Part shown: positions 5,584-16,043 of the stretch, one piece after another
Numbering within the stretch: position 1 is the stretch's first letter
Layout of the letters: each line of letters begins with the position of its first letter
Assembly (NCBI GenBank): GCA_963732945.1
Contig: CAVTBL010000017.1
Coordinates: 257,944 to 321,943 of the forward strand
DNA: 64,000 nucleotides
Source of the DNA: an uncultured Chloroflexia bacterium
GTDB lineage: Bacteria; Chloroflexota; Dehalococcoidia; DSTF01; WHTK01
Direction of reading: 5' to 3'
Notes under the pieces: generated by a model
Told to the model about the DNA's origin: nothing
Database searches by the model: none
Seen by the model: only the letters and a program-made list of their open reading frames with translations
Position numbers and translations under genes: made by a program

Positions 5584-5667
5584 ATCTCCAGCTTAACGCG
5601 GCGTCCCAAGACCGCGGGCGAGCAACAAACCGTCTGGTCGGTACCGGACAGTCTGAGTCGATGACGG

Positions 5668-5739
5668 ACCCTGCAGGTTGAAACCTGCAGCTTCGCGGAC
5701 GGCCCGTGTGATTTAGCTGCAGGATTCATCCTGCAGGTT
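5668..5739. repeat. Inverted doublet of REP-like palindromes
   Basis: CCTGCAGGTTGAAACCTGCAGCT then, about 25 bp later, AGCTGCAGGATTCATCCTGCAGG in opposite orientation. Confidence 0.75.
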
Positions 5740-5815
5740 AGTGTGTCCTCCACTCGCAGCCGTTTGTACGCACCGTATTGTCGCCCGGCGTTATACGCTG
5801 CTAGCGGAGGTTCGG

Positions 5816-6888: not shown

Positions 6889-7737
6889 CTAAAGCGTGCC
6901 TGCAGCGCGGGCTGCTGCCACGTCGCCCGGGTAGCCCCAGGTCTCGAAGCCGCCGAGTCCGTGCTCCTCGTTCCAGCGCGGCGCGTTGAGGCTCTCGCCC
7001 GTGACCCCGCCGGCGTCCTGGTCAGCAAAAAATAGGGCCAGCGGCACGGCGGCTTCCGGCCGCAGACGTCGCAGCGGCGACGGAGAGGCGTTCGGAGCTA
7101 CACGCGCTGCCATCTGCTCATCGGACCCCGTCGTGCGGGTGAAGCCCGGCATGAGGACGTTGGCGGCGATGTTGTAATGCTTGAGCTCGTGCGCAAGGAA
7201 GCGTGTCATCTCGATCTGTGCCGCCTTCGACGGCTGATACGGGCCTTCCTGCGTGACGCCGCCCCGCCCTTCAGAACCGAGGACGATGATGCTGCCCCGC
7301 CGCTGAGCCAGCATTGGCTGTACGAACTGCTTGACGACCCGGAAGGACCCGAAGACATTGGTGTCGAACATACGCAGCCAGTCCTGCACGGTAGTGTCGA
7401 TGATCCGGGTCGTGCCCGTGGGCGGGTAAAGGTCCCGCGCACGCATGGCCGCATTGTTGATGATCACGTCGATGGTGCCGAAGCGTGCCATCGCGGCTTT
7501 GTAGACGCGTTCGACCTGCTCATCGCTCGTGATGTCCATGCTCTCGGCCATGGCGTTCGCGTTGCCGGAAAGCTCGGCGAGGAAATCAGCAGCCTCGTCA
7601 CCGGATACGCCCGCAGGTTCCCAGGTACGGGCCGTACCAACAACTCGCGCGCCCTCTTTCAGGAAAGCACGCATGAACTCCCGCCCGATGCCGCGCGAGG
7701 CACCCGTTATCAGCACGACCTTACCCGTGACCGCCAT
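6889..7737 (-). CDS. Short-chain dehydrogenase/reductase
   Basis: TGASRGIG, NNAA and YQPSK (YxxxK). Confidence 0.9.
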   Translation of the reverse strand: MAVTGKVVLITGASRGIGREFMRAFLKEGARVVGTARTWEPAGVSGDEAADFLAELSGNANAMAESMDITSDEQVERVYKAAMARFGTIDVIINNAAMRARDLYPPTGTTRIIDTTVQDWLRMFDTNVFGSFRVVKQFVQPMLAQRRGSIIVLGSEGRGGVTQEGPYQPSKAAQIEMTRFLAHELKHYNIAANVLMPGFTRTTGSDEQMAARVAPNASPSPLRRLRPEAAVPLALFFADQDAGGVTGESLNAPRWNEEHGLGGFETWGYPGDVAAARAAGTL

Positions 7738-7744
7738 CGCGTGA

Positions 7745-8176
7745 TTAGGACAGGCGGACCACGCCCGGCTGGTCCGGCTGCCAGTCCTGGAAAGTCGGGC
7801 CGTCCGGCGCTCGGTACTCACGAAGCGAGATCAGGTAGCCGGAGGGATCCCTGATCTGGGCCTGGTGCCCCCAGAACGTCATCGCCGCCCACGGCTCGCG
7901 AGCCACTTCGACGCTTCGGGCTCGCAGCTCGGTCAGGGTGCGCTCCATATCGTCGACAACGAGGCCGATGCGTAGCTCACTGCGGCCGTCGGTTGAAGGT
8001 GTGGTGGTCGAAGGAGTGAGCTCCAGCAGTATCTGGCCCAGTTCGATATAGGCCGAGAGGCGGCCGTTGGTCGTGTACTTGCGCAGCAGCTTGAAGCCCA
8101 GGTTCTGGGTGTAAAAGGCGATCGACTCGTCGACGTCACGGCAAGGCAGGTAGATATGACTGATGTTCTTGATCAT
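7745..8176 (-). CDS. VOC/glyoxalase family protein
   Basis: ISHIYLPCRDVDESIAFY..LGF, RDPSGYLISL. Confidence 0.88.
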   Translation of the reverse strand: MIKNISHIYLPCRDVDESIAFYTQNLGFKLLRKYTTNGRLSAYIELGQILLELTPSTTTPSTDGRSELRIGLVVDDMERTLTELRARSVEVAREPWAAMTFWGHQAQIRDPSGYLISLREYRAPDGPTFQDWQPDQPGVVRLS

Positions 8177-8264
8177 GCACGTCTCCTCGCCTCTCCTGGC
8201 AGGGTGACTCTGCCACCGTGAGCGCGGTGTGTCCAGTCATCCTCGGCGACCCGGACATGGTCGT

Positions 8265-8342
8265 GCGTAAACACTGTTATCTCCAGAGAACTGATCTCGA
8301 TCGTGCGGGACCTCGTCGGTAAACGGCGCGTAAACATTGTTA
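8265..8342. promoter_or_regulatory. Candidate operator pair upstream of the SipW/TasA operon
   Basis: GCGTAAACA(C/T)TGTTA at 8265-8279 and 8328-8342, plus a further GTAAAC at 8319-8324. Confidence 0.4.
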
Positions 8343-8447
8343 CGAAGTCTTTACGGCCTCGCGGGAATTATTGACACTGACCACTCCGCAGTGTTTAGTC
8401 GAAGCGGACCGCCCCGTTAAACAGAAGAAGACAATTTCCTGATTGCG

Positions 8448-10304
8448 GTGTCGCGACGGCACTGCTGGTGGCGTATTGGCACGAAGCGAGGCAAGAACCT
8501 GAAAGGATCGCTCCTCCGTGCCTTCCTGTTGCTTCTCGCGATCGGGCTGGTTGCCACCTACGGAGTCAGGGGCTCCCTCAACCCGGCACACGTAACGACA
8601 GTTAGTGCCGCCGATCTCCAGATCGTCCTCAGCAGCAACGACACCGATACGCTGCAATTCCAGGTCGCCCTGGGCCAGCCTTGCGCCGATGCCCTGGCGC
8701 CCGGCGATTCCTGCGTCGCCACCGTAAAGGTCGAGAACAAGGGATCGACCGATAGCCCAGTCGGCATGCCGGAAATCACGGTGAGCGGCACGCTCGACAC
8801 CTGTAGCGGTGACGATCCGGCCAATCCGGGCGCGGGCGCCCACAACCTCAGCGTCTCGTTCCGCGACCCTCAGCCGACGGGCATGCTGCTCAAGGCAGGC
8901 GCCAGCGAGACCTTCGACGTCGTGTTTACCCTTAGCTCCGCCATGGGCAACGCCTGCCAGGGCAAGCAAGCGTCCATAGAGGTATTCGTAGCGACAGGAG
9001 CGTTCGCGCAGGGCCCCGGGGCGGCCGGACCATCGGCGACCACTGAGCCCGCGACGCAGGCGCCCGAAGCATCATCGCCGCCCGCCGAAGCCCAGCCCGC
9101 CGAGGAAGCGCCGGCAGCGCAGGCGCCACCGCTGGTTCCTACCTTCACGCCAATCCCAGCGCCGACAGAAACACCGGTACCCGCGACGCCGGCACCGACC
9201 GCATCCGTAACGGTGCAGACTCAGGTCGTTACGCCGACGCCATCGCCTACGCCGACCCAGGAGCTGCTTCCGCCCGCCACCGCTGAGCCGCGCACCTTCC
9301 TCGACAACCAGCCGGGCTTCTCGGAGATCTCGACCAACATTTCGGTCGTCGGAACGAACCTGTTCCTCGCCGTGCTGTCGCTGCTCACGCTGCTGGTCGC
9401 GACCACCGTCTTCAACTCGACGCTCGAAGAGAACGCCAGGGACATCGAAGCCGTAGCCCGCAAGATCACGGACTCACCGCGTGTTGCACCCATGGCAGCG
9501 GCGCTCGGCTGGCTCAGCGAGGAGGAAGCCGGCGGCACCCACGCTCTGCTCAACTGGCTCAAGCCGATCCTCATCGTCTTGATCACGGCCGCGATCTACG
9601 CGGTCATTGACCCGAACTTTGGCTTCAACAACGACACGCTGGTGCTGATCACGGCACTCGTGGCCGGCCTCGCGATGGCCACCTTCCTCTACGAGGGCGG
9701 CCAGGTCCTCTGGTCGACGCGCCGCTACGGGACGCCGGCCGCAATGCGCGTCTATCCGGTCGCCATCCTGATAGCACTTGGGTCCGTGGTGCTGACCCGC
9801 ATTACCAACCTGCACCCCGGCATCATCTTCGGCTTCGTCACCGCGGCCGCGATCTTCCCGCGTGGCGCCATGTCCAAGCGCGAGAAGGGCATGATCATCC
9901 TCGTACCGCTCGTCGGGCTCATGATCGTGAGCTTCGTGGCCTTCGCGCTGATCGATCCGCTGCGACGCCTCAGCCAGGACAACTCCGGTGTGCTCTACGC
10001 GCTACCTGAGACGATCGCAATCGCGTTGTTCGTTGGCGGCGCCGAGAGCGCGCTGCTCATCCTGCTCCCGATTCGCTTCAACGATGGCGAACGCATCTGG
10101 GAGTGGAACAAGCTGCTCTGGGTCATCCTGGCCGTACCAGCGACCTTCGCGTTCTTCCACATCATCATCGCCAACGACGACGGCGTACGCAGCATCACCA
10201 ACAACACCAACGCGATGACGCTGATTATCGTCTGCCTCGTCGTGCTCGTGATCTCATTCGCGACCTGGCTGTTCTTCAAGCTGCGAGATATGGGAGAGGA
10301 CTGA
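8448..10304 (+). CDS. TasA/camelysin-like N-terminal domain, Pro/Thr/Ala linker and polytopic (FGLLP-motif-like) membrane domain
   Basis: Signal-like LLRAFLLLLAIGLVATYG; LAPGDSCVATVKVENKGS; LSSAMGNACQG; long PT linker; multiple hydrophobic segments with LHPGIIFGF and LLPIRFNDGERI. Start uncertain (CTG at 8499 possible). Confidence 0.7.
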   Translation: MSRRHCWWRIGTKRGKNLKGSLLRAFLLLLAIGLVATYGVRGSLNPAHVTTVSAADLQIVLSSNDTDTLQFQVALGQPCADALAPGDSCVATVKVENKGSTDSPVGMPEITVSGTLDTCSGDDPANPGAGAHNLSVSFRDPQPTGMLLKAGASETFDVVFTLSSAMGNACQGKQASIEVFVATGAFAQGPGAAGPSATTEPATQAPEASSPPAEAQPAEEAPAAQAPPLVPTFTPIPAPTETPVPATPAPTASVTVQTQVVTPTPSPTPTQELLPPATAEPRTFLDNQPGFSEISTNISVVGTNLFLAVLSLLTLLVATTVFNSTLEENARDIEAVARKITDSPRVAPMAAALGWLSEEEAGGTHALLNWLKPILIVLITAAIYAVIDPNFGFNNDTLVLITALVAGLAMATFLYEGGQVLWSTRRYGTPAAMRVYPVAILIALGSVVLTRITNLHPGIIFGFVTAAAIFPRGAMSKREKGMIILVPLVGLMIVSFVAFALIDPLRRLSQDNSGVLYALPETIAIALFVGGAESALLILLPIRFNDGERIWEWNKLLWVILAVPATFAFFHIIIANDDGVRSITNNTNAMTLIIVCLVVLVISFATWLFFKLRDMGED

Positions 10305-10494
10305 TGGCTTCAACCCGACGCGATCGATTTCTTCAACGGCGCCGCTGTTGGCGTGCGCTGACATTACCCGAATACGCAATCGACCAGGAGGTACTCAGTG
10401 CCCGAAGACAGGAGTAGTCATTGACCGCGCAGCGCGTGTCACGGCGCGCCATCGGATACGAAAAGGCAACGGATAGCCACCAAGGAGGCAAGCA

Positions 10495-11223
10495 ATGCGA
10501 AGAAGTATTTTGACCAGCGTGGTGCTCATAGGCGCCGTGCTAGCCCTGGTCATCGGGGCCGGCACCTTCGCCGTGTTCTCCGACCAGGAGAGCATCTCGA
10601 CCGACCCCGCCCACAACCTCGTGGCGGGCTCCGTCGGCATCAAGATCAACCAGGGCACCAACGCCACCAACGGCGACACCAACGGCGTCTCGGACCTCGC
10701 TCTGATCGTCGACGGCCCTGACTCTGGCGCCGGTAACGCCTGCACCGTCACGACCCTGAACAGCGCCCCGCTGCCGACGCCGGTGGCTACGGTCACCGCG
10801 CCGACCGACTTCACCTACTGGGCGCCGGGCGACGAGTGCATAACGACGATCACGGTGAACCGCGGCCTGCCGGACAACGGCACCGTCGCGACCTACCTGG
10901 CCGAGGACCTCTACATCGACGGCATCTCGCTCGGTTCTTCCAACGGCACCTGGACCCAGGGCGCCGGCTCCGACTTCTACCTCGACTGCACCGGCGACGC
11001 TAACGGCTGGCGCGTCCGCATCAGCCCGTTCATCGATGACAGCAGTGGTCACGCCGCGTTCATGCCGGCCGCTGCCGCCGACACGGAGCACTTCACGATC
11101 ACGATCGACTTCGACGTCAACGCGCCGAACACGTGCCAGAACGACGGTCCTCACACCCTGGCTCTGACCGTGCGCACGACGCAGGACACGCTCGACCCGC
11201 ACAACACGAGCGACGCGCCCTAG
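10495..11223 (+). CDS. SipW-dependent signal peptide protein, TasA-like fibre subunit
   Basis: MRRSILTSVVLIGAVLALVIGAGTFAVFSD (GTxAxFxD), NLVAGSVGI, WAPGDEC, APNTCQN; strong AAGGAGG RBS. Confidence 0.85.
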   Translation: MRRSILTSVVLIGAVLALVIGAGTFAVFSDQESISTDPAHNLVAGSVGIKINQGTNATNGDTNGVSDLALIVDGPDSGAGNACTVTTLNSAPLPTPVATVTAPTDFTYWAPGDECITTITVNRGLPDNGTVATYLAEDLYIDGISLGSSNGTWTQGAGSDFYLDCTGDANGWRVRISPFIDDSSGHAAFMPAAAADTEHFTITIDFDVNAPNTCQNDGPHTLALTVRTTQDTLDPHNTSDAP

Positions 11224-11347
11224 CGTGCAGGTGGCCGGTTGGTCTGCAGTATGGAAAGGAGGCAGTAAACATGAGGCGATCTGAGTCAGCTCCGATGCAG
11301 CTTGTCGGGCTGTCACCTTGCCTGCCACGATTCGGGCGGACGGCGCC

Positions 11348-12259
11348 ATGACGCCGCGTTCGGACGAGGACGAGGCCGTGTCGCGCTACGAGGACGAGCG
11401 TCGCGGCGACGAGCCGCGTCGCGATGCGTCTCGCTCGAAGACGGGTCGTAGCGTGCCACCCGCGACGCCGTCGGACGCAAAGCGCCCAACCCTCGACGAA
11501 CTGCTCGGCATCTTCGCAGCCGAGCAGGCTCGCGTCGAGGCGGATGCGCACGCCCCGGCGCCAACGTCGCCCCTCGAGGCCGCATCGGTGACCGATCCGA
11601 TCGATGTCGCGGAGCACCATTCCGCGCGGGACGTCTCCCCGTATGAGGACGAACCCGGCGACGACGAAAACGCTACGCAGCCAGACGGCCGGCGATTCGG
11701 CAAGCTCAGCTTGACAATCGCCTCGTGGGCCGGCGTCCTCGTTGCCGCGCTCACATTCCTGGTGCTCGGCGGGCTGATCCTGGTGCCGCGCGCCATGGGC
11801 TGGCAGGGCATGGTCGTGCTCTCGGGCAGCATGGAGCCGGCGCTCAAGACGGGCGGTCTGGCATTCGTGCAGCCGCTCTCACGCGAGCAGATCGACCGCC
11901 TGAAGCCCGGCGACATCATCACCTTCCGCAACAGCGCCATCGCCGGCCTCGTCAGCCACCGCATCGTCCAGGTGAATCAGGGTGACGGCGGGCCGTCCTT
12001 CGTGACCAAGGGCGACGCCAACCCCCAGCCCGACGACGGCCAGGTTGCTGCCGCAAGTGTCGTCGGCAAGGTCCGCTTCTCTGTGCCCTACCTCGGGCGC
12101 CTGGTGGAACGGCTGCACAACCGCAGCACCTATCTGCTCTTCCTCGGTATACCGGCCGGCCTGCTCATTGCCGGCGAGCTGTGGAACATTGCCTCCGAGC
12201 TACAGCGCGCCCGGCGCGAGAAGACCGCGCACACCGACGTCGAAGGAGCGGTGTCTTGA
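11348..12259 (+). CDS. sipW: Signal peptidase I, SipW/Sec11 type (S26B), with long acidic N-terminal extension
   Basis: VLSGSMEP (Ser), GDIITF, VSHRIV (His), TKGDAN..DD, VVGKV..VPYLG. Confidence 0.92.
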   Translation: MTPRSDEDEAVSRYEDERRGDEPRRDASRSKTGRSVPPATPSDAKRPTLDELLGIFAAEQARVEADAHAPAPTSPLEAASVTDPIDVAEHHSARDVSPYEDEPGDDENATQPDGRRFGKLSLTIASWAGVLVAALTFLVLGGLILVPRAMGWQGMVVLSGSMEPALKTGGLAFVQPLSREQIDRLKPGDIITFRNSAIAGLVSHRIVQVNQGDGGPSFVTKGDANPQPDDGQVAAASVVGKVRFSVPYLGRLVERLHNRSTYLLFLGIPAGLLIAGELWNIASELQRARREKTAHTDVEGAVS

Positions 12260-13032
12260 TCAACCGCCGCGTCCTCCTGCTCGCGTTCTTCGTATTGGCC
12301 CTGGCAGCCGTCATTGTGCTGCCGGCCGCCATGCGCGGTACTTACGCGATCCAGACGGACGAGGAGCACGCGGCGGGCAATGTCACAGCCGGCGAATGGA
12401 CCACGCTCGCAGTCAGCGTGGCCTACGCGCCCACGGGTTCAGGCCCGGTCAGCGTCACGCTGAGCTGCACCGGCACCGGCGTCACGATCCTGAGCCTGAA
12501 CCCCCAGACGATCACACCCGGCACACCCGGCTACTTCCGCATCACCCGTAACCCGAGTGTCAACGCCTCATGCTCTGCAGTCGAGGACACGGTCCCGGCC
12601 GGCTACACCGCCGATCAGGCCTGCGAATCGCTATCGCTAAGCACGATTACGGCTAGCTGCACGATCACGAACACCCAGGACACCGGCACGGTCACTATCC
12701 ACGTCGCGGGCGGCCTCGGCACGGCATCGTTCGGCTTCACGACCGACCTGCCGGCGACCTGTACGCCTGATAACGCCGCGAACTTCACGCTCGATAACGA
12801 CGGCACGACGAGCACGTACTCAGACACCGAGACCTGCTCGGGCATCACGACGGGCGTCTACCACGTGACGGAGTCGTCCCTGCCGCCGACCTGGCAGATC
12901 GGCGACATCAGCTGCACGGAGTCCGGCGGCAACAGCGTGGCTAATACGACGCACGACACCACCAGCGTGACGGTTCACCTCGAGAAGGGCGAGACCGTGG
13001 AGTGCACCTTCACGAACGATCAGCCCGCCTAG
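12256..13032 (+). CDS. SipW-dependent secreted protein with Cys-containing prealbumin/SpaA-like beta-sandwich domains
   Basis: GTYAIQTD..GNVTAGEW signal motif; CTITNT, GVYHVTE..W.IGDISC, LEKGETVECTFTN; overlaps the sipW stop and has an AAGGAG RBS. Confidence 0.75.
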   Translation: MINRRVLLLAFFVLALAAVIVLPAAMRGTYAIQTDEEHAAGNVTAGEWTTLAVSVAYAPTGSGPVSVTLSCTGTGVTILSLNPQTITPGTPGYFRITRNPSVNASCSAVEDTVPAGYTADQACESLSLSTITASCTITNTQDTGTVTIHVAGGLGTASFGFTTDLPATCTPDNAANFTLDNDGTTSTYSDTETCSGITTGVYHVTESSLPPTWQIGDISCTESGGNSVANTTHDTTSVTVHLEKGETVECTFTNDQPA

Positions 13033-13123
13033 GGCGCCCGTTACCGACCCGAAATACAGACGTTATCTGCCGTTCATTCCGACGCAACGCCGCCTGCCTA
13101 TAGTCACGTGCGGGAGGTCTGCC

Positions 13124-13372
13124 ATGATTGCAGCCCAGCTCGGCCTCGGCGTCGCGACGATCGTGTTCGTTGCCTCGAATGCGCTCTCGGCGCGTGCGAC
13201 ACGAGACGACGCCGCATCACACACAGGCGACGCGCTGTCGGACGAAAAGGCCGCGGCCATCGCCGAAGCGCAGTCGTTGCTCGACAACGTCCTGCCGCCC
13301 GCAACGCACCGTCAACATCAAGCAGTCATGCTCGAGCACAACGGCCTCGCCGCTCGGCGGCGCCTCGCCTGA
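13124..13372 (+). CDS. Small hypothetical protein with hydrophobic N-terminus
   Basis: GGAGG RBS precedes the ATG; fills the gap between the operon and fusA2. Confidence 0.5.
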   Translation: MIAAQLGLGVATIVFVASNALSARATRDDAASHTGDALSDEKAAAIAEAQSLLDNVLPPATHRQHQAVMLEHNGLAARRRLA

Positions 13373-13478
13373 CGGAAACGACCCTCACAGGGGAACACGG
13401 GGACCACTAATCTCCGTCCTGCGCTGACTCGTGCTCCAGATCGGCACCCGCGCCCGGCGGGAGCCCCGCGCCCAACCG

Positions 13479-15530
13479 CTAGGTTGCGTGCTCCTTGGCT
13501 GCGGCCTCGATGACCTTCTTCGCTACGTGTTCCGGGACCTCTTCGTAGTGGTCGAAGCTGATCTCGAAGGTGGCGCGGCCCTGGGTTAGCGAGCGCAGGT
13601 CCGTGGCGTAGTGCTGCATCTCGGCCAGCGGCGCCTGCGCGTCGATCACCGTCACCTTGTCGTCCGGCGTGATGCCCAGCACGCGCGCGCGCTTGCCGTT
13701 GAGGTCAGAAACGAGGTCACCGGTGTAGCTCTCCGGTGTCCGGACGCGCACGTTGACGATCGGCTCCAGTAGGACGGGCCTCGCCTTGGAAGCGCACGCT
13801 TTGAGGGCCTGCGAGCCGGCGAGCTTGAACGCCATTTCCGACGAGTCGACCGGGTGCTCCTTGCCGTCGATTAGGCTGACGCGGATGTCGACGACCTGAC
13901 TGTGTGCCAGGATGCCCTCGCTCAGGGCCTCGTGCACGCCGTTCTCGACCGCCGGGACGTAGTGGCGCGGCACCGAGCCTCCGACCGTCTTGTTGACGAA
14001 CTCGAAGCCCGAACCGCGCTCCAGCGGCTCGATCTCAATCGTTACTTTGGCGTACTGGCCGTGACCGCCCGTCTGCTTCTTGTGCGTGTACTCGGCGGAC
14101 GAGTGCGCCGTCAGCGTCTCCTTGTAAGGCACGCGCGGCGTCTGATAGGCGATGTCGGCGCCGAACTTACGCCTCATCTTCTCGCAGGCGATTTCGACGT
14201 GCGACTCGCCGAGGCCCGCGAGGATGGTCTCGCCGGTGTCGGGGTCACGGTGCACCTGCAGGATCGGGTCCTCTTCGACGATGCGGGCCAGCGCCGAGCT
14301 CATCTTCTCCGTATCGGCCTTCGACTTGGGGAAGACGGCGACGCTGAACACGGGCTGCGGGAAATGGATCGGCGGCAGCTTCACCGGCGCATCCTTCGAG
14401 GTCAACGTGTCGCTGGTCAGCGTCTCGGCGAGCTTGGCCACCGCGCCGATATCGCCGGCGACCAGCTCGTGCGCCGGCTCCTGGTTCTTGCCGTGGATGA
14501 CATACAGGGTGCCAACGCGTTCGTCGACGCCGTGGTTGGCGTTCCAGACGTGGGAGTCGGCATGCAGTGTGCCGGAGAACACGCGCAGGTAGGTCAGCTT
14601 GCCGACGTAGGGGTCGGCCGTCGTCTTGAACACCTGCGCCGCCAGCGGGCCATTGGGGTCGGCTTTGATTTCGCTGCCGTCCTCCAGCCTGACCGGCTCG
14701 TCGGCGGGCGACGGAAAGAACTCTGCGATCGCGTCGAGGAAGTGCGACACGCCAATCGTCTTGGTCGACGACGCCGCGAACACCGGCACGAGGTCGCCGT
14801 GGTTGATGCCCATCGCCAGGCCCTTGCGCACGTCCTCTGGCGAGAGGTCGGCGGTCTCGAGGTACTTTTCCAGCAGCTCCTCGTCGTTCTCGGCGACGGC
14901 CTCGAGCAGCTGGCTGCGCAGCGATTCGACCTCGGCAGCCATCGCCGCGGGCACCTCGCCCTCGACACCCTTTTCGCCGGTGTATGCCTTCATGTCTATC
15001 AGGTCGATGACGCCCGAGAAGGCGTCCTGCGAGCCGATAGGCAGGTAGACGGGCACGCAACGGCGGCTGAGCGAGTCCTGGATCTGACGCAGCGCAGCGC
15101 CGAAGTCCGCGTTTTCGCGGTCGAGGCGGTTGATGAGGATTGCTTTCGGGACATCGCGCTCGTTCGCCATCTGCCAGGCCAGCTCGGTGCCGACCTGCAC
15201 GCCCGAGGCCGCGCACACAACGATCACCGCCGTGTCCGCCGCCGCGAGGCCGCTGTAGGCGTCGCCGATGAAGTCGGCATAGCCGGGCGCGTCGATCAGG
15301 TTGAGCTTGTCGCCCTTCCACTCGATCGGCAGCAGCGAGGCGTTGATGCTGACCTTGCGCTTGATCTCGTCCGGGTCGAAGTCGGACGACGTGGTGCCGT
15401 CATCGACCCTGCCCAGGCGGTTGATGGCGCCACTAACAAACAAGGCGGCCTCGGCAAAAGACGTCTTGCCGGTGCCGCCATGTCCCAGGAGAACGAGGTT
15501 ACGAATCTTCTCTGTAGGGTAGTCCTTCAT
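13479..15530 (-). CDS. fusA: Elongation factor G paralogue (EF-G2), outside the str operon
   Basis: GHGGTGKT, DAPG, NRLD, HKKQTGGHGQY, DSSEMAFK; 683 aa. Confidence 0.95.
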   Translation of the reverse strand: MKDYPTEKIRNLVLLGHGGTGKTSFAEAALFVSGAINRLGRVDDGTTSSDFDPDEIKRKVSINASLLPIEWKGDKLNLIDAPGYADFIGDAYSGLAAADTAVIVVCAASGVQVGTELAWQMANERDVPKAILINRLDRENADFGAALRQIQDSLSRRCVPVYLPIGSQDAFSGVIDLIDMKAYTGEKGVEGEVPAAMAAEVESLRSQLLEAVAENDEELLEKYLETADLSPEDVRKGLAMGINHGDLVPVFAASSTKTIGVSHFLDAIAEFFPSPADEPVRLEDGSEIKADPNGPLAAQVFKTTADPYVGKLTYLRVFSGTLHADSHVWNANHGVDERVGTLYVIHGKNQEPAHELVAGDIGAVAKLAETLTSDTLTSKDAPVKLPPIHFPQPVFSVAVFPKSKADTEKMSSALARIVEEDPILQVHRDPDTGETILAGLGESHVEIACEKMRRKFGADIAYQTPRVPYKETLTAHSSAEYTHKKQTGGHGQYAKVTIEIEPLERGSGFEFVNKTVGGSVPRHYVPAVENGVHEALSEGILAHSQVVDIRVSLIDGKEHPVDSSEMAFKLAGSQALKACASKARPVLLEPIVNVRVRTPESYTGDLVSDLNGKRARVLGITPDDKVTVIDAQAPLAEMQHYATDLRSLTQGRATFEISFDHYEEVPEHVAKKVIEAAAKEHAT

Positions 15531-15888
15531 GAATCAATCCTCTTTGTCGCAGTACTCGAGGTGTCAATTCGGGGTTAACGCGAATTCTAGACCCAGCCTC
15601 TCAACCCCGGCAACTCATTGGCATGAAGGCGCGCTCTGCCGCCCAACGCCGAACACCTCTCTTCCAGAATGCGACGCGACTCAGTCCTCGACAAGGGAAG
15701 CGCATCTCCGTGGATGCAACGCGGCGATGCGGCAAAACGCCGCGACGCCACCAGACGAAGTCCCCTCTCCCGGACGAGAGGGATAGGGTGAGGGGATAGA
15801 TGACGCCTCGTTGGCTGCGAGCGTCGCATGCGCCCACAAGACGTCGAAGGTTGGTGTTCAGACGTCGTTGCGGCTTTGGTGTTAACAA

Positions 15889-16043
15889 CCCTGCAGGATG
15901 AATCCTGCAGCTACCGCAGACGCAACACCGTCAGACTCGAGACGTGTAGTCCTGCGACGTTGTGAATCCTGCCCTCGGCAACAACCGCACGCCGCGTCGT
16001 CTGACTCCGGCTCCGTAGCCTCTTGCGACAGCACGATCAGAAA
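15889..16043 (-). repeat. ~155-bp composite repeat, full copy
   Basis: TTCTGATCGTGCTGTCGCAAGAGGCT ... GCAGGATTCA ... GCGGTAGCTGCAGGATTCATCCTGCAGGG; colinear with copies at 18565 and 35991. Confidence 0.85.

Follow-up and report, generated by a model that had tools for sequence, protein, structure and literature searches.

A TasA-like domain on a polytopic FGLLP membrane domain: candidate cell attachment of a SipW-dependent fibre in an uncultured Chloroflexia bacterium

What a TasA-like domain tethered to a multi-helix membrane domain does at the cell surface is the question raised by an open reading frame (ORF) at positions 8448..10304 of the window, as we call the whole stretch of 64,000 nucleotides analysed here (uncultured Chloroflexia bacterium, GenBank assembly GCA_963732945.1, contig CAVTBL010000017.1, positions 257,944 to 321,943). 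A preliminary description, made from the letters of the DNA, had divided the 618-amino-acid product into an N-terminal domain with TasA-type motifs, a stalk and a membrane domain, and this three-part architecture was confirmed. We consider it fairly probable (about 60%) that a SipW-dependent fibre composed of TasA-superfamily subunits is attached to the cell through this protein as its basal minor subunit. The parts of the ORF are the following:

8448..10304, + strand: whole ORF, 618 amino acids; signal, TasA-like head, Pro/Thr/Ala stalk and FGLLP membrane domain
8448..8570, + strand: N-terminal signal or signal-anchor, residues 1-41 (hydropathy; alignment with stand-alone relatives that keep GTFAxFTD)
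8571..9002, + strand: compact beta-sandwich head of the TasA/camelysin superfamily, residues ~42-185 (hhalign; AlphaFold2, AF2; four Cys)
9003..9311, + strand: Pro/Ala/Thr-rich stalk, residues ~186-288 (composition)
9312..10301, + strand: FGLLP (NF041501) membrane domain with about nine transmembrane helices (profile match; hydropathy)

The ORF starts with a GTG codon and was judged genuine; its N-terminus is kept in the relative P0020 (77% identical). A Pfam scan of the 618-residue protein gave nothing significant, and the head was assigned by profile-profile comparison. Using hhalign, 22 head-family sequences, from which the six direct matchers of PF12389 had been left out, were aligned to 22 PF12389-positive proteins drawn from the PF12389 loci of a genome scan of the same class, giving a probability of 97.5% (E 7e-12, 156 columns, query residues 17-184); with all 28 head-family sequences, the value was 98.3%. 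The match takes in the entire domain, and the first strand behind the signal is part of it. The motifs quoted in the preliminary description (VSAADLQI, LAPGDS..VKVENKGS and GNACQG) are present and align to the PF12389-positive counterparts aGTLDL, maPGD, ltN.Gs and aGNe.QG. Of the 28 family members, six are matched by PF12389 itself at E ≤ 0.1, and the three stand-alone relatives P0041 (31.6 bits), P0045 (30.6 bits) and P0046 (23.8 bits) exceed its cut-off. Two genome places in the class are matched by both the head-family profile and PF12389, one of them spanning positions 3-194 of the 196-position model.

The AF2 model of the head is all-beta with a predicted local distance difference test (pLDDT) score of 77.5. 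The likeness to TasA was shown neither by fold search nor by direct model match: PF12389 did not match the head alone at E ≤ 0.1, and the head sequence and the head-family profile retrieved nothing relevant among the Protein Data Bank (PDB) sequences. Judged from profile comparison, the head does belong to the TasA/camelysin superfamily as a compact domain, as the preliminary description had held. Its size is about half that of TasA.

The ORF is the first of a four-gene module consisting of the putative anchor, a 242-amino-acid TasA-like protein, SipW and a protein combining a SipW-type signal with a SpaA-like domain; sipW sits 1 kb downstream of the ORF in the same direction. The downstream genes are:

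10495..11223, + strand: TasA-like protein of 242 amino acids and candidate for the shaft subunit of the fibre; its signal, AGTFAVFSD, is of the classic SipW type (TIGR04088, 25.2 bits, cut-off 19)
11318..12259, + strand: SipW-type signal peptidase I, archaeal/endoplasmic reticulum type (TIGR02228, 88.7 bits, cut-off 51.85)
12181..13032, + strand: frame of 283 amino acids carrying RGTYAIQTDEE as SipW-like signal and, at its C-terminus, a SpaA_4 prealbumin-like domain (PF24514, 37.9 bits); it may be the tip or adhesin subunit

By hhalign, the family of the 242-residue protein matched the PF12389-positive set at 98.3% and the head family at 98.1%, and the A1 profile matched the protein at E 7.3e-4. 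BLASTP of the head against this neighbour aligned the APGD..C motif only (E 0.002), and the relation emerged through the profiles, which make the 242-residue protein a candidate distant paralogue of the head domain. The PF12389 threshold was reached by no protein of the window operon. The peptidase was additionally matched by NF046067 (90.7 bits, under its cut-off of 190) and PF10502 (25.1 bits). The last 79 bases of sipW also belong to the 283-residue frame, the true start of which therefore probably lies further downstream. Its hhalign match to the TasA family (31%, 36 columns) comprises only the signal and the first ~15 mature residues, and its layout may be read as TapA-like, with a donor segment joined to a different body.

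Comparable gene sets were found at three other loci:

L007: TasA-like protein of 217 amino acids, SipW, SpaA-like protein of 366 amino acids, head-FGLLP fusion of 631 amino acids
L008: TasA-like protein of 238 amino acids, SipW, head-FGLLP fusion of 637 amino acids
L006: TasA-like protein of 174 amino acids, head with Pro/Thr linker, LPVTG, transmembrane segment and basic tail (330 amino acids), SipW of 332 amino acids, SpaA-like protein of 548 amino acids

The 283-residue protein has counterparts in L006 and L007, and in L006 a divergent DUF11/DUF7507-FGLLP gene (866 amino acids) adjoins the module. From these contents it follows that the functional parts travel together, with gene order and anchor being variable.

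The arrangement of the 618-residue protein in the membrane was assessed from its sequence features. Six of the first 16 residues of the N-terminal signal are Lys/Arg, and residues 24-41 form its hydrophobic core; the signal aligns with that of the head family and ends in ATYGVRGS, a degenerate version of the SipW-type GTFAxFSD motif; it is probably cleaved. TIGR04088, the model of the SipW-type signal, matches five of the 28 head-family members. The stalk, for which about 100 residues had been claimed, comprises 106 residues by composition (185-290), among them 26 Pro, 21 Ala and 17 Thr, with 80% being P/T/A/S/E/Q, and a comparable linker is present in relatives and paralogues. A hydropathy scan revealed one segment near the N-terminus (24-41) and, between 300 and 612, about nine further segments, and Lys/Arg-rich loops at 418-429 and 471-477 are consistent with residues 42-290 being outside the cell. 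Together with the four Cys of the ectodomain (79, 89, 119 and 170) and the LPXTG sorting signals of relatives, the signal and the positive-inside pattern argue for an extracytoplasmic head; the cytoplasmic placement, which would have contradicted a fibre role, is not supported.

The C-terminal part was assigned to NF041501, 'FGLLP motif-containing membrane protein', with residues 289-607 matching positions 3-312 of the 312-position model at 172.1 bits (cut-off 150; 174.2 bits in the whole-genome scan), which, with the nine or so hydrophobic segments, bears out the multi-helix FGLLP-type domain of the preliminary description. Motifs conserved in the domain are FN[SA]TL[EK][ED]N, LDPxFG, PGxxFGxV, [LM][LI]PxxFx[DP]G, W..W and FxFFH. 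The best candidate for the name-giving motif is at residues 537-541, reading LILLP here and FGLMP in P0017, and P541 is Pro in 62 of 63 FGLLP sequences.

Relatives of the head provide a second line of evidence. A phmmer search of 1.84 billion representatives returned 27 relatives at E ≤ 0.001. Eleven end in an LPxTG-like signal, a transmembrane segment and a basic tail; nine are stand-alone proteins of 163-173 amino acids with the canonical GTFAxFTD signal; two have other tails (RTX repeats and an unknown domain); four are fragments; and one, P0020, is a frameshifted FGLLP fusion. An LPXTG sorting signal is absent from the 618-residue protein, the C-terminus of which is the FGLLP domain. A maximum-likelihood tree was calculated for 27 head domains, with the fragments P0030, P0031, P0032, P0037 and P0043 removed and four FGLLP-fused heads from database relatives and L008 added. 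FGLLP-fused heads occur in two places of this tree, so that the membrane-domain label needs two changes: one group is a clade of four (support 99/99), and the other, the window protein with P0020 (100/100), is nested within the LPXTG-bearing P0021-P0023. The forks placing the pair there have 91-92% bootstrap and are not 'starred'; the FGLLP label as a single group was found in 0 of 200 bootstrap trees. The other FGLLP-fused group matches the head family of the window at 97.8% by hhalign, with a pairwise identity of about 23%. The C-terminal ends of the relatives and the tree show that anchor types are swapped among the head relatives, the FGLLP domain here replacing an LPXTG signal, as expected of a cell-attachment subunit. 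Replacement through sortase loss was considered as the cause and rejected; the genome has four sortase genes above the cut-off, so that the swap was not forced in this way.

From these data, the following mechanism is proposed. The 618-residue protein would be exported by Sec, and the SipW of the operon would remove the signal near residue 42, so that the head would remain on the outer side of the membrane, its N-terminal strand free. The stalk of ~100 residues, long enough to cross a wall, would tether the head to the FGLLP domain with its predicted nine helices. By analogy with TasA/TapA and the TafF model, head and 242-residue shaft protein would be joined by donor-strand exchange, by which the fibre would be fixed to the cell, and the SpaA-like protein may serve as tip or adhesin.

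Several results weigh against this proposal. The Pfam and NCBIfam models of TasA and of the SipW signal have no match to the 618-residue protein; PF12389 (gathering score 22.5 bits) does not match it at E ≤ 1, nor does TIGR04088, and the deviation of ATYGVRGS from the canonical SipW motif makes cleavage uncertain. The 242-residue protein has almost no relatives (two matches), and in alignment it bears little resemblance to the shaft candidates of L007 and L008. The contact between this protein and the head through donor-strand exchange is suggested by analogy only. The head-family profile was found in only seven of 301 genomes of the class, this one included, and by DNA comparison pieces of the cluster occur in only one of 12 same-genus genomes (G312, with an L006-like arrangement). 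Finally, with one genome per species scanned, the membrane domain was found at 37 loci elsewhere, and SipW was present within the fetched flanks (up to 8 kb; some contigs are shorter) at three of them, namely L006, L007 and L008, as determined by phmmer and a catalytic-motif scan. With 34 of the 37 loci being without a SipW neighbour, the FGLLP domain taken alone is uninformative on fibres.

This survey shows what the membrane domain carries elsewhere. The 37 loci are from Chloroflexota (Chloroflexia, Dehalococcoidia, Limnocylindria and Anaerolineae), Actinomycetota and Dormibacterota. At 28 of them, an N-terminal hydrophobic segment is followed by 120-1,140 residues and then the membrane domain; at the remaining nine, there is little or no N-terminal extension, or a contig end interrupts. 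No Pfam family was found in 33 of 38 scanned FGLLP frames (L042 left out), and DUF11/DUF7507 repeats, RCC1 repeats, Big_3_5 or unassigned domains make up the ectodomains of database relatives. The nearest clusters in the Atlas are hypothetical proteins of 301-378 amino acids, mostly of Actinomycetota. This genome has three NF041501 genes, two of them paralogues of the window gene:

L004:7647-9701, contig C11: FGLLP paralogue, 684 amino acids; FN3-like head, Pro/Thr linker of ~200 residues, SipW not nearby
L005:8902-11871, contig C6: FGLLP paralogue, 989 amino acids; beta-helix, two DUF11, Gly-Pro/collagen-like linker, SipW not nearby

Many unrelated surface domains seem to be held in the membrane by this domain, which would act as a modular C-terminal anchor. 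The preliminary description had proposed that the fused ectodomains and their proximity to sipW be surveyed and had expected its reading to suggest a function for the membrane domain. The variety of ectodomains (FN3-like, DUF11/beta-helix, RCC1, Big_3_5) and the rarity of SipW neighbours suggest that this function is generic tethering and not fibre nucleation. Among the survey proteins, the N-terminal parts of L029, L038, L032, L031, L026, L034, L040, L036, L039 and others measure 246-262 residues after the signal and have no Pfam match. Many FGLLP proteins of Limnocylindria, Chloroflexia and Anaerolineae share an N-terminal part of very similar length, which may be a conserved unnamed ectodomain.

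The tethering of unrelated heads by paralogues with SipW not nearby also favours the alternative that survives best, in which the 618-residue protein is a displayed surface protein and no fibre part, for instance an adhesin or a cell-bound camelysin-like module, and SipW merely processes its signal. The interaction of the head being known as a proposal only speaks for it as well. Against it, the head occurs alongside a TasA-like paralogue, SipW and a SpaA-like protein across four loci (window, L006, L007 and L008), and it is homologous to the fibre-forming family over the whole domain, the first post-signal strand included. We give this alternative roughly one chance in five.

A further explanation places the activity in the membrane domain itself, which would be site-2-protease-like (M50-derived), most likely a pseudo-enzyme, and would sense, release or process a partner attached to the ectodomain, with the TasA-like head as sensor or docking arm. 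It draws on a Peptidase_M50 cluster found in the Atlas at rank 21 (score 0.78) and on an hhalign comparison of 63 FGLLP domains with 12 small M50 proteins from related genomes, in which three motifs align in order: YEGGQ..RRYGtP with HExxH..RRyGiPV, GIIFGFV with TLFVFGGV, and LLPirFNDGe with NmxPGFPLDGG. The score of 19.7 was equalled by none of 60 block-shuffled and by three of 60 column-shuffled controls. Also in its favour, the domain occurs with little or no ectodomain at the nine loci and in the Atlas clusters mentioned above. However, the hhalign probability is 0.9% (E 0.059), and PF02163 matches none of the 21 A2 members even at E ≤ 10. The zinc ligands are gone: HExxH is absent from the FGLLP domain, the aligned YEGGQ having Tyr and Gln in place of the two His, and the position aligned to the ligand Asp of NxxPxxxxDG is Asp in 39 and Pro in 21 of the 63 sequences. 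The AF2 model of the membrane domain (pLDDT 78.7, predicted template modelling score 0.75) had no match in Foldseek (best E 0.07, template modelling score < 0.22). Other profile searches returned weak matches of PF14093 (DUF4271) to ten of the 21 A2 members (best E 6.4e-4) and, for the A2 family profile against PDB sequences, low-complexity matches to Pro/Thr linker columns only. A link of the membrane domain to the site-2 protease fold is a lead and not a finding, to which we give about one chance in three, and an active role in this locus is improbable. Somewhat more speculatively, FGLLP may be an ancient, zinc-less site-2 protease offshoot that, in Chloroflexota and neighbouring monoderm phyla, has turned into an exchangeable substitute for LPXTG, a polytopic 'foot' holding surface proteins, TasA-like fibre bases included, on a Pro/Thr stalk; the old substrate groove might still hold or release a partner helix. 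This extended scenario is tentative.

Least probable, and quite unlikely, is an uncleaved N-terminal segment that pins the head at both ends, making it a strand acceptor only (terminator or cap) or a non-polymerising membrane protein, as the missing TIGR04088 match and the replacement of GTFAxF[ST]D by G.NGSLNP or ATYGVRGS in the anchored subfamily could indicate, but the small residues at -1/-3 (V-R-G|S; A-N-G|S in relatives) would still suit type I cleavage, and LPXTG-anchored relatives would be doubly pinned too, which is unusual for sortase substrates.

Some observations concern the SipW genes and the surroundings of the module. The window peptidase has an extension (11318-11740) of ~140 N-terminal residues, charged and rich in Asp, Glu, Arg, Ala and Pro, before its first membrane helix; this long extension is shared by the SipW of L006 (332 amino acids) and not found in that of L007 (198 amino acids) or L008. 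In L008:5129-6247 (Dehalococcoidia), the SipW frame reads on, with no stop codon in between, to another SipW-type signal (HVSAQFTDSDS) followed by a small domain, so that peptidase and substrate-like protein lie in one open frame of 372 amino acids. A second SipW/archaeal-type signal peptidase I gene is present on the same contig (G000:C17:361043-361381, TIGR02228 59.2 bits), ~39 kb past the window end. Scanning 7600-13600 for promoters and terminators was uninformative, with 0 promoter-like sites and three terminator-like sites versus 3.2 expected, and no tRNA adjoining the cluster was found.

In the same 301 genomes that were searched with the head-family profile, PF12389 was found in 25, and an EF-G-like gene flanking the cluster is common to all 12 same-genus genomes as evident from DNA comparison. 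The sparse occurrence marks the cluster as an accessory, variable trait. Short palindromic repeats, CCTGCAGG-(A/T)TGAA(A/T)-CCTGCAG, flank the region at window positions 5660-5740 and 15880-15910. They match dozens of places in this and same-genus genomes with 75-100% identity and look like dispersed elements of the repetitive extragenic palindromic (REP) type.

Fibre subunits anchored to membrane or wall have been proposed before. The closest likeness of design is to TafF of the haloarchaeal tafi (Haloarcula hispanica), described in PMC11821415 and PMC12337348 as a pilin-like head with three C-terminal transmembrane helices and as the proposed tafi terminator and anchor; in the model of PMC11821415, this membrane subunit takes the shaft strand and ends assembly. 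Both proteins have an N-terminal shaft-like ectodomain (~140 amino acids in TafF) followed by C-terminal transmembrane helices, and in both loci a signal peptidase dedicated to the fibre is encoded beside the shaft and tip proteins (putative ones in the window). The role of TafF, to accept the donor strand of the shaft and so hold the fibre in the membrane, is itself an AlphaFold-based proposal and no experiment. In contrast to the window protein, TafF is archaeal and has three transmembrane helices versus about nine in the FGLLP domain, its descriptions mention no Pro/Thr stalk, and its shaft subunits are Tat-exported. In architecture and locus, the 618-residue protein fits a TafF-type anchor design, which is a likeness of design only.

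In B. subtilis and its operon tapA-sipW-tasA, TasA forms fibres through donor-strand exchange (PMC9674648, PMC10151520; PMC9245690), and PMC9245690 and PMC11821415 cite TapA as the donor of the first strand in Bacillus. The window module shares with this operon the dedicated SipW peptidase and the TasA-superfamily subunits. TapA, which has the same signal type with a different body and is regarded as a starter or anchor of the fibre, is no membrane protein and is without a TasA-type body, unlike the window anchor, in which a TasA-type head is covalently joined to a polytopic membrane domain. For AbpX-like loci, LPXTG and SLH (S-layer homology) anchors on minor subunits and co-assembly by predicted strand complementation are described (bioRxiv 10.64898/2026.01.04.697558). 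A dedicated signal peptidase and an envelope-anchored minor subunit are common to these loci and the window, and the LPxTG-type signal recurs in 11 of the 27 head relatives; the polytopic FGLLP anchor of the window protein differs, no such anchor being met in the excerpted text of the preprint. The C-terminal 320 residues of the window protein belong to NF041501, a family known by name only, and a full-text search for 'FGLLP', judged by titles and abstract openings, found no paper on it. Among the papers listed on SipW in Chloroflexota and their kin, none describes a protein of this kind, judged by the listing and by passages of two of them; the supplement of the bioRxiv preprint may list such architectures. 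Compared with the earlier proposals of membrane- or wall-anchored minor subunits of TasA-like fibres (TafF; LPXTG and SLH in AbpX-like loci), what is new is the use of a polytopic FGLLP domain as anchor, the swapping of this anchor for LPXTG between relatives of the head, and the view of NF041501 as a modular carrier of surface domains.

TasA-like fibres are turning up across bacteria and archaea, and their attachment to the cell is mostly model-based (TapA, AbpB, TafF). The head relatives offer a natural experiment on this attachment, with one anchor-type TasA head being placed on an LPXTG signal or on a predicted nine-helix domain in closely related genomes. The analysis would also give a first functional handle on NF041501, which in Chloroflexota, Actinomycetota and Dormibacterota carries many different surface domains. 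If the likeness to site-2 proteases is true, an intramembrane protease fold would have been reused as a structural anchor.

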